A stretch of DNA of 64,000 bases from Aestuariivirga sp. (lineage in GTDB: Bacteria > Pseudomonadota > Alphaproteobacteria > Rhizobiales > Aestuariivirgaceae): assembly GCA_043744395.1 (NCBI GenBank), contig JAYTUV010000055.1:62247-126246 (forward strand), written 5' to 3'. The translations under genes were made by a program, and so were the position numbers. Positions 41,943 to 50,327 of this stretch are shown piece by piece. A model generated the notes under the pieces. It did no database searches. It saw only the letters and a list, made by a program, of their open reading frames with translations, and was not told the DNA's origin. The stretch's first letter is position 1. Each line of letters begins with the position of its first letter.

Positions 41943-43634
41943 CTAGTGTTTGGTGGGTAGGTTTTTGATAACTGCACGTAGCTGGCGGATCTGCGCACGA
42001 TCCAATTCTTTGATTGGCTCTGCGATATCTTTATATGGGCGCAAATCAGGATGAAGCAAATGCGTGTTGTCTCTGATTTTTCCATATCGCCAGCCATCAA
42101 GCAGCCGGTCGATCATCCATCCACGGTGTTCAACTTCAGCTAATTTTTCCAGCGTAGTTGGATCATCAATGGCCGACCAATCACCCTTTAAAATTTCTGA
42201 TTCAGGCTTTGCCATGTAACCGGTAGACAACAATTTTGTAACAGCACGGGCCGCCGCAGTTCGGTTCGACAATCTGTATGTTTGCGCAAGTTTTGCCCAT
42301 GGGCGCATCGCCGCACTATCCCCACCGCGCGTCGTTTTCGCATCCAAACGATAAGCCTCGTGGAACGAACGCGCCAGAGTTTCAACCCAATCCGAAAGAT
42401 AATTTGGACCGTCATCAATTGCAATAATCTGCGTGGCAGGATCATTATTCTGAGTTGAGATAAACAGCTGTTTCGTTGAATCGCCGGCGTTCTGCAAAAC
42501 GTAAATGGGAACAAGCCAACGACCCAAAATCTGACTGCGACGACGCAAAGCCAAAGCTGCAACCACCCCGCGCGCAGCATCTTCATAACTAATGACGACT
42601 GCCGAAACAGGAGTGGATTTATCAAGTGCCACCATCTGCCCATCAGAAGCGATGTCCTGTAATTTTGGCAATTCAATAAAGTCTAATTTTACAAAACTGC
42701 CATCAAGCATGGCCGGATATCGGTAGGTGATTTCTGTTTGTGCTTCAAGTTTCTGGTCAGTTAAAATGCTAATCCTCGGAATATCCAACCCGAGATAAGG
42801 CGATAGTCGGCAGAACTTTTCAATGACGGCCAATGAAAAACCGCTCCACCCAATCACAACTAAATGGACGCGCTTCAAACCCCGACGTTTTGCATCATCG
42901 GAAAGCGGATGACGCAGCAATAATTTGCTCGCTGCAATCTGACCGGAATTAACCGCCACCACTTCAACAGACTCGGATGGGCTGCCAAAAGCTTCATTCC
43001 TGTTAAGTTCAGCAACCAGCGCAGCATTTTGCAAATTCACTTCAATCAACGCTTCATCTGTTCTCCCGGCCATGAGCTTAATGATGGTTTCAAGGCTTTC
43101 TAAACTTTGCGAGTCTGAATTGAGCTTCAAGTTGATTGACTTGGCCTTTGCCACGCCAGCCTTGCTCAGTGTATCTTGCGAAATTGTTTCATCTTCAAGA
43201 TGAAAGTCTGCTGTCATATGTGACGCGTTTATAACAACAACATTTCGCCCCGCTAATGGCTCATGTTGCGCACCAATCACGACATGATGACCAGACAATT
43301 TTCGCAACCGTCTGTCGTTCCACCACGCGTCAATTTGTGATCCAAATAATCGGAACAATCCAAACAGCGTAATGCAAGGTGCCACCCAACGCGCAACCAT
43401 TAACCACCAATTGCGAATGCCTTCGCCGCCCGGTTCTGGCATTGAAAAAAACAAAGAAAATGTGCGCAGTGCATTATTCAAAATCGCGAAGGCAGCTGTC
43501 TCCCCACTGCAGGCTTTTGTCACCGGGCATTCCAGACTAAAGCCATAATAACCAATGCCAAAAATGAATACGACAAACGGCAGCGCATACCTGAAGGGCA
43601 GCTCAGATCCAATTTCCGCCAATTTAGCTCGCAT
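41943..43634 (-). CDS. membrane protein with channel-like 2-TM N-terminus, two RCK/TrkA-N-like segments and a C-terminal RyR-repeat domain
   Basis: TM segments 'FRYALPFVVFIFGIGYYGFSL' and 'WWLMVARWVAPCITLFGLFRLF'. Rossmann-like 'HHVVIGAQ' and 'RVHLVVIGWSGFSLAV'. RyR-type halves 'LARSFHEAYRL...RPWAKLAQTYRLSNRTAAARAVTKLLSTGY' and 'LAEVEHRGWMIDRLLDGWRYGKIRDNTHLLHPDLRPYKDIAEPIKELDRAQI'. The start at 43634 (MRAKLAEIG) is chosen to avoid overlap with the divergent TIR gene and is uncertain. Confidence 0.65.
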   Translation of the reverse strand: MRAKLAEIGSELPFRYALPFVVFIFGIGYYGFSLECPVTKACSGETAAFAILNNALRTFSLFFSMPEPGGEGIRNWWLMVARWVAPCITLFGLFRLFGSQIDAWWNDRRLRKLSGHHVVIGAQHEPLAGRNVVVINASHMTADFHLEDETISQDTLSKAGVAKAKSINLKLNSDSQSLESLETIIKLMAGRTDEALIEVNLQNAALVAELNRNEAFGSPSESVEVVAVNSGQIAASKLLLRHPLSDDAKRRGLKRVHLVVIGWSGFSLAVIEKFCRLSPYLGLDIPRISILTDQKLEAQTEITYRYPAMLDGSFVKLDFIELPKLQDIASDGQMVALDKSTPVSAVVISYEDAARGVVAALALRRRSQILGRWLVPIYVLQNAGDSTKQLFISTQNNDPATQIIAIDDGPNYLSDWVETLARSFHEAYRLDAKTTRGGDSAAMRPWAKLAQTYRLSNRTAAARAVTKLLSTGYMAKPESEILKGDWSAIDDPTTLEKLAEVEHRGWMIDRLLDGWRYGKIRDNTHLLHPDLRPYKDIAEPIKELDRAQIRQLRAVIKNLPTKH

Positions 43635-43734
43635 AAAACCTACTCCTGAACCAAGACTTGCCGCAATAATAGTGTTGCACAATATGAAAGAACACTGAAA
43701 TATAGCAATCTCCTCAAGACGAGTGACGAGACTG

Positions 43735-48446: not shown

Positions 48447-50327
48447 TTACTTGAGGGTGGCAACGACCGTCAAATCTGCGAATGAAAGCGGCGACAAAAA
48501 TTGCCCGGCCACATCACGCGCAGCGGATTTTGGAATAGTGTATATTATTTTATTTAGCTCTTTTGGAATAGCGAAAACATCTTGCCAACTCTGCTCCCGG
48601 GTCTCAGGCAATTTCGCGCCGAGACATTCCAATAACATCAGACCGAGCGCATATTGATCTCTCCAAGCCGCACTATGAAATTTTGCTGCCAACGCAGGAG
48701 GCGCATAACGCGCCGTTGCACCGGATTGTTCTTTGTATTTCTCGGTCATCAGAGTGGCCAATCCAAAATCAACCAGCATCGTTGAACCATCGCGCGTGAT
48801 AATAACATTTTCTGGCTTCACATCGCCGTGCACGACACCGCGCGAATGCAACGCTTTCAATGTTTCAGCAAGCGCCATCACATAAGGCAAACAGGGTTGC
48901 CCTTGTTCTAGCAGTTTCCGAAGTGAATTGCCCTGCACATATTCTTGTACAATATAAAGTGCGTTTTCACCTTCCTGACCGCATGCCAAAATGCGGGCCA
49001 TGCCGGGCGCTGTTGCGGCATTGGCGCCGCGCACTTCGCGTTCAAGTGCGGCAATTTGAATTGTCGCTTGGCGCGGCAAGACCTTGAGTTTTTTCAACGC
49101 AACATTCTTGGCCCGCGCATTGTCATATGCCAAATAAACTTCGCCCTGCCCTCCAGAACCAAGCTTCTGCAAAAGCACATAGGCCTGTCGATTTTTCCAC
49201 GCATTCTCGGAAGTCACGCGATTGGTTTCCACGATAGGATGAAGATTGAGATGCAAATCTGCAAAAGCGGTTTCAACTTTCTCAAGCTGTACGTTGAGGT
49301 TTCGTGAAGCACAATAGTGTCGCGCGCCGTCAAGTTCGGCTGCCGCCAAATCTGCTTGTCCATCTGCAGAATAAGCCTTCGCCAAGAGAATACGCACATC
49401 AACCAAACGAACTGCGAGATCTTCATCTTCAAACCAGTCACGCGCGAGTTGAAGCGGGGAAATTGCAAGTTTGCATTGCCCCCGCGCCAAGTCATGCTTT
49501 GCACGGAGCACCGACACGACAATGGCTTCAAAACTTTCCGGAACGCAACACAGAGGCAGCGCCGCAAGTTGGTTCAAATGGATCTCGTTTTCTGGGTCGC
49601 GGTTGCGAAGTCCATCTTCAACCCGCAGCACCCGCCACCTAAACTGCAAATAAACCGGAAGTTTCGCATCATTTTTTTGCAATCGGTTCAGATGATCACC
49701 AGGCTCTTGATCTAACCCAAGCTTGATCCGTGCCGCGCATTCTTGCAGTTGTAGCCAGTAAACACTTTTTAAAAAAGGTTTGGCCTGTTGTTCTGCCAAA
49801 TCAACATAGGTTTTTGCAGAAAGCCATTTTTCCACCTCAGCATAAGCATCTGCCAATCGACAAAAGGCTAAAAAGCGATAGCCCATGAATGCACCAGTGT
49901 TTGCCTTTGCTAAAACTTCAACCAAACAGTCCTGCACCTGCCCCATACTGCCCAACCACGCATAAACCCGCGCCGTCTCCAAAAGAACATCGAGTTCAAA
50001 TTCATCTTGTTTAATGCGCGCCGCCAAATCATGGGCGCGGGAAAGCAGCGCCAAGGCAGCCAGCGGATCACGTGACCTGTTTCTCAAAATGGCCTGCAGC
50101 AGAAGCGATCTGCATTGGTCTTCTGAATGTGAATCAATATCAAAAAAAATTATGTCCGAGGGTTTGATAAATTGCTGCAGCTGCAAAAAACCAAATTCAT
50201 TCTGCCAAACAGGTTTATCGCGTGTTTTGATGGGCAGCGCATCGAAATGTCGCAGGCCCTCGTCAACAAATCCACGGCGTAAAATATTTCGAAACTGCGT
50301 GAGTTGGTCGATGGTCAAAGCTCCCAA
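48447..50327 (-). CDS. Hanks-type Ser/Thr protein kinase with about 370-aa N-terminal helical-repeat region
   Basis: C-terminal kinase motifs 'LGSGGQGEVY', 'VALKKLK', 'HGDVKPENV', 'VDFGLA'. No TM helix is evident. The TTG start at 50327 is uncertain and there is no internal ATG for more than 100 codons. Confidence 0.8.
   Translation of the reverse strand: MGALTIDQLTQFRNILRRGFVDEGLRHFDALPIKTRDKPVWQNEFGFLQLQQFIKPSDIIFFDIDSHSEDQCRSLLLQAILRNRSRDPLAALALLSRAHDLAARIKQDEFELDVLLETARVYAWLGSMGQVQDCLVEVLAKANTGAFMGYRFLAFCRLADAYAEVEKWLSAKTYVDLAEQQAKPFLKSVYWLQLQECAARIKLGLDQEPGDHLNRLQKNDAKLPVYLQFRWRVLRVEDGLRNRDPENEIHLNQLAALPLCCVPESFEAIVVSVLRAKHDLARGQCKLAISPLQLARDWFEDEDLAVRLVDVRILLAKAYSADGQADLAAAELDGARHYCASRNLNVQLEKVETAFADLHLNLHPIVETNRVTSENAWKNRQAYVLLQKLGSGGQGEVYLAYDNARAKNVALKKLKVLPRQATIQIAALEREVRGANAATAPGMARILACGQEGENALYIVQEYVQGNSLRKLLEQGQPCLPYVMALAETLKALHSRGVVHGDVKPENVIITRDGSTMLVDFGLATLMTEKYKEQSGATARYAPPALAAKFHSAAWRDQYALGLMLLECLGAKLPETREQSWQDVFAIPKELNKIIYTIPKSAARDVAGQFLSPLSFADLTVVATLK

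Follow-up and report, generated by a model that had tools for sequence, protein, structure and literature searches.

A conserved module of TIR, protease, FHA, kinase and RCK-RyR genes in Aestuariivirga and related bacteria: a candidate trans-envelope signalling system

Gene content of the locus

The stretch of Aestuariivirga sp. DNA analysed here (64,000 nt of GCA_043744395.1, contig JAYTUV010000055.1; hereafter the window) carries a locus of five genes, i to v, at positions 41943-50327. They encode a membrane protein with RCK and ryanodine receptor (RyR) domains, a membrane TIR protein, a secreted trypsin, a membrane-tethered protease with an FHA domain, and a Hanks-type Ser/Thr kinase. This module is real, conserved and undescribed. 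A preliminary description of the DNA had treated the five genes as one unit, and the same gene set was found in seven other lineages. It had also failed to match the set to any named system, and the searches agreed. PADLOC-DB and NCBIfam scans of the five proteins gave generic domain matches exclusively, far under the family cut-offs, and no description of this gene set was found in the literature. The sub-threshold matches were to the PD-T4-6 and MAD6 kinases, RT-protease, SAVED-TIR and ThsB. The NCBIfam model ThcB4 scored 34.3 bits against a cut-off of 220, and the PADLOC ThsB models matched partial regions only (E 6.5e-5 to 0.011).

A six-frame list of the open reading frames (ORFs) in the window reproduced the five genes and all their junctions, as they had been described. 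The genes and their parts are as follows.

Gene i, 41943-43634, minus strand, 563 aa: two transmembrane (TM) helices around a pore-helix-like segment (~14-100), tandem RCK/Rossmann domains (~113-410), RyR Repeat12-like domain (~411-560).
Gene ii, 43735-45801, plus strand, 688 aa: TIR domain (16-134), helical linker (141-211), TM helix (212-230), predicted periplasmic helical-repeat (TPR-like) domain (236-688).
Gene iii, 45801-46694, plus strand, 297 aa: S1A trypsin with signal peptide.
Gene iv, 46707-48446, plus strand, 579 aa: FHA domain (1-108), disordered linker, TM helix (133-151), S1 protease (~191-425), C-terminal beta-sandwich (~470-575).
Gene v, 48447-50327, minus strand, 626 aa: helical N-terminal domain of 370 aa, kinase domain (383-594).

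Genes ii and iii meet in a TAATG (45799-45803), gene ii ending and gene iii beginning at 45801, and 12 nt (46695-46706) separate genes iii and iv. Genes iv and v are convergent, stop-to-stop at 48446/48447. Genes i and ii are divergent and 100 bp apart (43635-43734). All catalytic motifs in the locus are intact. By prediction, the TIR, FHA, kinase, RCK and RyR domains are cytoplasmic, and both proteases and the helical-repeat domain are periplasmic. The topology first proposed, with TIR and FHA inside and the proteases and TPR-like domain outside, thus holds.

Gene ii matched Pfam TIR_2 at 7e-23 and had one TM segment by hydropathy. TPR matches were weak in the protein itself and clear in its homologues, in keeping with the TIR-TM-helical-repeat architecture assigned to it earlier. 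Glu86 is invariant in 25 homologues and is aligned, at the sequence level, with the catalytic E642 of SARM1. The ectodomain is the fastest-evolving segment of the locus. Compared with the related locus L004 (loci of the survey are numbered L001 onwards), it is 38% identical, versus 53-90% for every other domain. Compared with L007 and L010, it is 21-22% identical, the TIR domain 66-68%, and the other domains overall 26-71%. In a strain variant of gene ii that is 98% identical, 16 of 17 substitutions fall within residues 381-563. This is the pattern of a ligand-facing sensor, and we propose that gene ii may be both the receptor and the signal generator. The linker of ~70 aa between the TIR domain and the TM helix has invariant W144, R146, H148, T149, W158, E178, W180, S202 and R203. 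It is common to soluble TIR-WD40 relatives and is covered by no Pfam model; it may serve oligomerisation or phospho-regulation.

Gene i begins at the ATG at 43634 and not at the TTG of a longer ORF, as shown by 13 homologues in which M1-R2 and the N-terminus are conserved. Pfam RyR (PF02026) matched the protein at E=5.5e-13 (49.4 bits, cut-off 27.4), and a family profile searched against the PDB found ryanodine receptors at ~1e-35 to 1e-37. The AlphaFold2 (AF2) model had a pLDDT of 76, with ~50 in the TM region. Foldseek matched this model to the tandem-RCK gating rings of TrkA, MthK, Slo1/BK and CASTOR/DMI1 (E 1e-5 to 1e-3, probability 1.0; 8-16% sequence identity to the RCK structures), and also to human RyR3 Repeat12. 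Gene i homologues of 589-758 aa carry a precomputed Pfam TrkA_N match. The earlier assignment of a two-TM, channel-like protein with RCK segments and a C-terminal RyR repeat was therefore confirmed by Pfam, profile and model comparison. No TVGYG K+ selectivity filter was found in gene i; in the homologue alignment the loop that connects the pore-like helix with TM2 reads SMPEPGGEG or SLAEPGHEA. The glycine-rich NAD motif is degenerate in the first RCK domain (RCK1). From these folds and motifs, we propose that gene i could be a nucleotide-gated channel effector.

The RCK-RyR family has at least 3,032 cluster representatives (50% identity) at E<=1e-30, and the best 150 mostly align end to end. 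Longer homologues of 671-794 aa (P0091, P0093, P0095, P0100-P0102) have an alpha/beta C-terminal extension of ~110-220 aa, starting at residue ~570 and not present in the window protein. The extensions of P0095 and P0102 (~190-205 aa) had no Pfam match, and that of P0095 also had no PDB sequence match. A SLOG-like identity for the extension was unsupported by these searches.

Gene iii is the signal-peptide S1A trypsin that it had been taken for (Pfam Trypsin, PF00089, 1.5e-54, 185.6 bits). The His/Asp/Ser triad is intact in the motifs TAAHC, DIAL and GDSGGP, and Asp189 is present in the S1 pocket (D in DSCQGDSGGP). In an alignment of 10 orthologues, the propeptide ends in a conserved D-[TS]-D-M, directly before IV[GN]G; in the window, the site lies between DTDM and IVGG. 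A trypsin of this kind is Arg/Lys-specific and does not cut after Met, so a different protease must activate gene iii. These motifs indicate a secreted trypsin zymogen that is unable to activate itself. The obvious candidate for its activator is the protease of gene iv, which is co-operonic and membrane-tethered.

Gene iv matched Pfam Trypsin_2 at 3.6e-16 and had one TM segment by hydropathy. Its triad (H230, D293, S380) is invariant in 37 sequences. The protease fold, as modelled by AF2 and searched with Foldseek, is HtrA/SplA-like, with matches to HtrA1, DegS and DegP. Membership in the HtrA/DegP/DegS family itself was rejected, the protein having no PDZ match and scoring 15.5 bits on NCBIfam DegP against a cut-off of 416. 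The C-terminal beta-sandwich had no family match. A Pfam search with the full-length protein missed the FHA domain. The N-terminal 112 aa alone matched FHA (PF00498) with 22.7 bits against a cut-off of 20.7, as did 17 of 20 family members. A profile of the N-terminal family found FHA domains exclusively in the PDB (Rv1747, EmbR, GarA, Ki-67), and the AF2 model is an 11-strand beta-sandwich with a pLDDT of ~88. Of the residues that bind phosphothreonine in canonical FHA domains, the Gly-Arg pair (G31, R32) and the His (H51) are invariant across the family. With the isolated N-terminus and the family profile, the FHA-TM-protease architecture claimed for gene iv is well founded.

Gene v matched Pfam Pkinase at 5.4e-32 (111.7 bits), with intact GSGGQG, VALKK, HGDVKPEN (487-495, non-RD) and DFG motifs. 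It has no convincing TM segment by hydropathy. Its orthologues in L016 and L018 have a TPR_MalT or TPR match, and the earlier view of a soluble Hanks kinase with a helical-repeat N-terminus can be kept. The non-RD motif is found in eight of nine orthologues; the distant L018 orthologue is an RD kinase (HRD).

Conservation and surroundings of the module

Synteny was determined from the contexts of gene ii and gene iv homologues. The carriers were metagenome-assembled genomes of Aestuariivirga, Hyphomicrobiales and 'Alphaproteobacteria'. Locus L001 is the window sequence itself (0 mismatches in 9,554 bp), and it was therefore left out as independent evidence. The order RyR (minus strand), TIR-TM-TPR, META, trypsin, FHA-TM-Trypsin_2, kinase (minus strand) was found in L002, L003, L004, L006, L007, L010 and L011. 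In these seven further lineages, TIR-protein identity goes down to 44-49%, and the flanks are of three different housekeeping sets. The stop-to-stop or overlapping arrangement of genes iv and v is retained in L003, L004, L006 and L007.

The META gene (PF03724, 108-115 aa) lies between the TIR and trypsin genes in the relatives (for example L002 12059-12406, L004 12263-12610, L007 12031-12378), and beside the kinase gene in L014, L016 and L021. In the window, the 115-aa META gene between genes ii and iii has been cleanly lost, and the TAATG junction stands in its place; all other lineages keep it. META proteins have no obvious signal peptide.

The divergent spacer between genes i and ii is retained in all lineages, with a length of 88-109 bp. 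It contains one conserved element.

Operator-like block, 43665-43705, in the i/ii control region: 41 bp with the palindrome AGTGTT-N14-AACACT at 43671-43696.

In the intergenic alignment, this block is conserved among loci whose proteins are merely 48-80% identical. The palindrome occurs in a single copy in the window and in a single copy each, at the same spot, in L003, L004, L006 and L011. By its sequence, the block looks like an operator. There is no regulator gene within the locus, and no match was obtained when the i/ii spacer was scanned for sigma-70 promoters and terminators.

More distant relatives of gene iv (28-45% identity) keep the trypsin and the kinase with the same N-terminal domain, and their partners differ. 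L016 has META, a TIR-WD40 protein of 1,434 aa and a MAP3K_TRAF_bd/TPR-S protein. Four TIR proteins are encoded in L018: TIR-PBP-HAD-PfkB, TIR-TPR, TIR-nSTAND1-TPR and TIR-kinase. A metagenome scan gave 80 further loci, in which FHA-TM-Trypsin_2 genes were repeatedly found beside Hanks kinases and sometimes beside TIR genes (L027, L028). TIR-WD40, TIR-STAND or TIR-kinase genes neighbour the FHA-protease and kinase in some loci. A scan of a genome collection with the gene iv alignment used narrow patterns and gave 3 loci, a number that sets no bound on distribution. From these gene neighbourhoods, the ancient core is the FHA-TM-protease and kinase pair, usually with a secreted trypsin, which the first interpretation of the locus had not recognised. 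The TIR partners (TM-TPR, WD40, STAND) are interchangeable, and RyR and META dispensable. The RyR gene goes with the clade whose receptor is the membrane TIR-TPR protein.

In a single lineage (L016 4505-8902 / L017), the trypsin/FHA-protease/kinase/META/TIR-WD40 module directly adjoins nadC-nadB-nadA and a gene for an NrtR-like regulator. Since ADP-ribose is the signal of NrtR-type regulators, this adjacency is a possible hint of a link to NAD turnover.

On the left of the window locus (37902-41938) are genes for two cytidine/guanine-type deaminases, an FGGY sugar kinase and a GMC oxidoreductase. Synteny with L002-L004 extends over this flank, and the relatives have a Bmp-type ABC transporter in addition. 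The cluster resembles one for the salvage of nucleosides or sugars and seems to have nothing to do with the module. The left flank is common to the window, L003 and L004, and the right flank is unlike theirs. The right flank has the decayed tRNA-like sequence and the IS3 remnant that had been described for it.

tRNA-like remnant, 50473-50544, minus strand: Rfam tRNA, 26.8 bits, below the cut-off of 29.
IS3-family OrfB and OrfA fragments, ~50590-50960, minus strand: broken by in-frame stops.

ARAGORN called no tRNA on the right flank. No integrase or bounding repeats were found around the locus. A lower G+C content than in the core had been suspected from spot counts, and this was correct in part. 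The G+C content is 44-50% in the locus and 50-54% on its left side. The whole right third of the window is as AT-rich or more so, and there is no island-like signal.

The RyR domain as candidate reader of a TIR product

Two preprints of 2026 describe phage proteins of the PF02026 fold that bind or cleave TIR products. RyDEP of mycobacteriophage DyoEdafos (gp78; H75, W78, H100, D117) cleaves 2'/3'cADPR, isomers of cyclic ADP-ribose (cADPR), and other phage RyR-domain homologues in that study bind and sequester them; most of those assayed were binders, not enzymes (PMC13232231). RyR Tad of Pectobacterium phage CB1 (gp68) sequesters 1''-3' gcADPR (Kd 43 nM) through the ligand residues H129/W132, K147/H154 and K170/D171 (10.64898/2026.06.04.730250).

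A BLASTP alignment of gene i residues 500-545 with gp68 residues 126-171 was gapless, with 35% identity. H503, W506, R521, H528 and D545 of gene i are in register with five of the six validated gp68 ligand residues; the sixth, K170, is not retained, the equivalent being Leu544. H503, W506, H528 and D545 are also spaced as in RyDEP. Conservation at the ligand positions was scored over 162 family representatives: H at 503 in 99%, W at 506 in 98%, R or K at 521 in 87%, and D at 545 in 83%. Judging by these residues, the RyR domain of gene i probably reads a TIR product, which turns an odd neighbour of the TIR gene into a probable effector. This likely role was absent from the first interpretation of the locus and is the strongest new lead.

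Two unrelated neighbourhoods have a similar pairing. In GCA_041890195.1 (L101 2585-8052 / L102), a TIR_2-NPHP3_N/NACHT-like-TPR gene (1,056 aa) lies near a TrkA_N+RyR gene (607 aa). The TrkA_N+RyR protein is 24% identical to gene i, one unannotated 148-aa gene lies between the two, and the genome is unrelated, with no protease or kinase of the module nearby. A radical-SAM/SPASM gene and a C1 peptidase are in the vicinity. On the Sinorhizobium meliloti plasmid pEm1132b (NZ_CP148088.1, L105), a DUF4062-NB-ARC-TPR gene (747 aa, 6656-8899) overlaps by 4 nt a TM-TrkA_N-RyR gene (780 aa, 8896-11238). DUF4062 is a TIR-like NADase (10.64898/2026.05.01.722283). The TIR domain of gene ii, the TIR-STAND protein of L101 and the DUF4062-STAND protein of L105 thus make three NADase-type sensor architectures beside the same kind of membrane protein. 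The lead of an RyR channel as receiver accordingly reaches wider than this locus. The RCK-RyR family is very large, so a partnership with TIR may hold for only part of it. A tblastn search of RCK-RyR proteins against plasmids gave very few matches, too few for statistics.

In the RefSeq annotation of L105, the first gene is truncated at its N-terminus, and in place of the second stand two 'hypothetical proteins', of which one is read from the other strand. Genes for patatin, ankyrin-repeat and adenylate-cyclase proteins are also found around the pair. The Methylobacterium sp. FF17 plasmid NZ_CP107533.1 (L106 6790-9522) encodes a 910-aa AAA (bpMoxR-like) protein with a C-terminal RyR domain, with a very large SIR2-family gene and a transposase nearby.

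Proposed mechanism, alternatives and known systems

With slightly less than even confidence, we read the locus as a Thoeris-like module for TIR signalling that works across the envelope and has the RyR/RCK protein, as a nucleotide-gated channel, for its output. The parts are directly supported by co-occurrence, motifs, folds and predicted topology, and each causal step between them is one that we infer. An envelope or periplasmic cue would be read by the hypervariable ectodomain of gene ii, by the protease pair, or by both. The HtrA/V8-like protease iv would cut zymogen iii between DTDM and IVGG, and this two-step cascade would process the gene ii ectodomain; in relatives, META or a similar partner could be processed instead. 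On the cytoplasmic side, the non-RD kinase v would phosphorylate Thr, with T114 and T124 in the FHA-TM linker of gene iv and the invariant H148-T149 of the TIR linker as candidate sites. The FHA domain of gene iv would read phosphothreonine and so couple the state of the protease to the TIR protein. Clustered TIR domains could then convert NAD+ to a cADPR-type nucleotide. Binding of the nucleotide to the RyR Repeat12-like domain of gene i would open the RCK-gated pore, and the ion flux or depolarisation would lead to cell arrest or altered envelope physiology. Candidate triggers are an envelope-stage phage, a predatory or epibiotic bacterium, or a toxin.

Several observations weigh against this mechanism. 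At the receiving end, the pore region of gene i is modelled with low confidence and is without a K+ filter motif. H503 and D545 correspond to the catalytic dyad of RyDEP, so that gene i could degrade the signal instead of responding to it. Most of the large RCK-RyR family may work without TIR, reading ATP or ADP as RyR3 Repeat12 (R12) does. At the producing end, the non-enzymatic TIR domains of Toll-like receptors (TLRs) also carry a Glu at the catalytic position in the alignment. The canonical phosphate-contacting Ser of FHA domains is replaced by Gly48 in most gene iv members. The module is not always complete either: L014 has RyR, both proteases, the kinase and META, but TIR genes are absent from the 21 kb around them; L016 and L018 lack the RyR gene and do have TIR genes; and a distant TIR-TPR paralogue also stands alone. 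Since META is missing in the window, the module may be partly decayed in this genome. Finally, in none of the contexts is the locus flanked by a known defence gene, and its chromosomal position is stable among relatives. A location of homologues in defence islands had been proposed as a check, and no such setting was found: each context seen had housekeeping flanks (ABC transporters, deaminases, FGGY kinase, GMC oxidoreductase, ApaG, dCTP deaminase and similar). Such flanks and a stable position are unlike typical mobile defence islands.

The same flanks, the vertical-looking inheritance at a fixed position and the lack of defence-island neighbours would suit a housekeeping role in envelope stress or homeostasis. 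Proteolysis and phosphorylation would then tune an RCK channel regulated by adenine nucleotides, and the TIR domain would be an adaptor, with no nucleotide signal. The size of the RCK-RyR family fits this role, as does the binding of ATP, ADP and AMP-PCP by RyR3 R12 (PDB titles), and L014 does without a TIR gene. An adaptor is harder to reconcile with a catalytic-position Glu that is invariant over 25 diverse homologues, or with an ectodomain that evolves like an arms-race receptor. In addition, RCK-RyR genes recur beside TIR or TIR-like STAND proteins in unrelated contexts, and relatives of the module lie amid TIR-STAND, TIR-WD40 and TPR-S genes of the conflict type. We regard the housekeeping role as unlikely.

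The TIR domain might itself be the effector and deplete NAD+ in an abortive response. Gene i would in that case sense the fall of NAD(H) through its RCK domains, or hydrolyse or buffer cADPR-type products and so limit self-damage. Many bacterial TIRs are NAD+-depleting effectors, according to a December 2025 survey of Thoeris systems (10.64898/2025.12.03.692087). Two features of gene i agree with this alternative: H503 and D545 have the spacing of the RyDEP dyad H75/D117, and TrkA_N-type RCK is an NAD(H)-binding fold, with NAD_binding matches. A simple hydrolase or sponge, however, would not usually be built on a membrane channel with a gating ring. The degenerate glycine-rich motif in RCK1 argues against NAD(H) sensing, and the prevalence of binders among the phage RyR-domain proteins assayed argues against hydrolysis (PMC13232231). 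We consider NAD+ depletion improbable.

Control could also run from the inside out. The kinase and FHA domain would sense the cytoplasmic state and switch on the periplasmic proteases as the real output, for envelope remodelling or for attack on invaders or competitors, with TIR and RyR as accessories. The deepest core of the module, FHA-TM-protease and kinase, often with an S1A trypsin and without TIR or RyR, is what one would expect under inside-out control, and the large soluble N-terminal repeat domain of the kinase suits sensing. Left unexplained are the hypervariable periplasmic domain fused to TIR and the close, divergent arrangement of the TIR and RyR genes around a conserved operator-like site. 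Both the scheme and its suggested outputs seem quite improbable to us.

A chance juxtaposition, or a recent mobile island bounded by the tRNA-like and IS3 remnants, has in its favour those right-flank remnants and a G+C content slightly under that of the left part of the window, and it can be dismissed: seven other distinct lineages have this gene order, in three flank contexts, L002-L004 share the left flank, the AT-richer composition runs to the window end with no integrase or bounding repeats, and synteny and composition together rule out the bounded island.

Among known systems, Thoeris is the closest in logic to the proposed TIR signalling module. In the December 2025 survey, types I-XI have a TIR protein, ThsB, that makes a cADPR isomer, His-ADPR or cADPR, which activates an adjacent effector (10.64898/2025.12.03.692087). 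The same source gives 29 putative effector types and describes the TIRs as small and cytosolic. In its verified type X, a TIR is paired with ThsK, an 'ion channel' effector that responds to an unknown signal (10.64898/2025.12.03.692087). In the present locus, a TIR protein with a Glu at the catalytic position likewise adjoins a membrane protein with a domain of a type that binds cADPR isomers, and the proposed order of producer, nucleotide and effector is that of Thoeris. A channel effector has a precedent in type X. The survey text and supplementary text, as far as available, make no mention of RyR, TrkA or PF02026 (10.64898/2025.12.03.692087). Unlike the cytosolic Thoeris sensors, the TIR protein of the locus is a receptor that crosses the membrane once and has 450 aa in the periplasm. 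The locus type also adds four conserved genes (two proteases, a kinase and META), falls under the ThsB and ThcB4 cut-offs and is without defence-island context. Its periplasmic receptor domain, proposed protease cascade and kinase/FHA arm occur in no Thoeris type. If our reading is right, an RyR-domain, RCK-gated channel would be a new effector class of TIR signalling. The module would also be the first TIR system with a periplasm-facing sensor, extending nucleotide immune signalling from cytoplasmic phage sensing to envelope surveillance.

Gene i has relatives of two kinds. RyDEP and RyR Tad have the same PF02026 fold, with the ligand residues H, W, K/R, H and D in register. They are small soluble dimers that sequester or cleave a host signal, whereas the gene i domain is the C-terminus of a host membrane protein. 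MthK, BK/Slo1, TrkA-TrkH and CASTOR/DMI1 share with gene i the order TM1, pore helix, TM2 and then two RCK/Rossmann domains; gene i differs from these channels in having no TVGYG-type filter and in its extra RyR domain. The proposed role would give a very large family of uncharacterised membrane proteins a function that can be tested.

A Hanks kinase and an FHA reader also link an envelope or surface cue to a cytoplasmic output in the actinobacterial Esr pathway (PMC13622651) and in the PpkA/Fha1 pair of the type VI secretion system (T6SS). In the locus, by contrast, a TM helix joins the FHA domain to a protease in the periplasm. An Esr-type pathway was rejected, the MoxR/vWA, beta-propeller sensor, phosphatase and Esx genes being absent from the locus. 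The T6SS threonine-phosphorylation pathway and a MoxR-vWA system were rejected as well, their core genes being absent within 10 kb in the window and relatives. If the proposed mechanism holds, Ser/Thr kinase/FHA signalling and zymogen cascades would be tied to NAD-derived messengers in bacteria.

The NTP-dependent conflict systems that Kaur, Burroughs, Iyer and Aravind (2020) described in multicellular bacteria share TIR domains, trypsin-like peptidases, kinases, FHA domains and TPR/WD40 sensors with the module (PMC7159879). The window locus differs in lacking a MoxR-vWA, STAND NTPase or GTPase core, and RyR has no occurrence in that paper (PMC7159879). Distant relatives of the locus adjoin TIR-STAND, TIR-WD40 and MAP3K_TRAF_bd/TPR-S genes.

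The last comparison, with the animal Toll/TLR pathway and the cADPR-ryanodine receptor axis, is an analogy. An extracytoplasmic serine-protease cascade, a single-pass receptor that combines a cytoplasmic TIR domain with an ectodomain of repeats, a Ser/Thr kinase of the non-RD type and an RyR-type nucleotide-binding domain on a channel would have counterparts on both sides. The TIR domain of gene ii is N-terminal, the opposite orientation, its ectodomain is TPR-like and not of leucine-rich repeats, and Death domains are absent. The analogy does not imply that the pathways descend from a common ancestor, and what goes beyond domain homology we infer. A broader proposal would join a Toll-like bacterial receptor pathway to the cADPR-ryanodine receptor axis, with the RCK-RyR family as general channels gated by NAD-derived nucleotides and serving TIR, TIR-STAND and DUF4062-STAND sensors. 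We hold this to be doubtful. If it were true, the locus would offer a tractable bacterial model for a question debated since the 1990s, whether cADPR-type nucleotides act directly on RyR Repeat12 to control the channel, and RCK-RyR channels would be the prokaryotic counterpart of cADPR action on ryanodine receptors.

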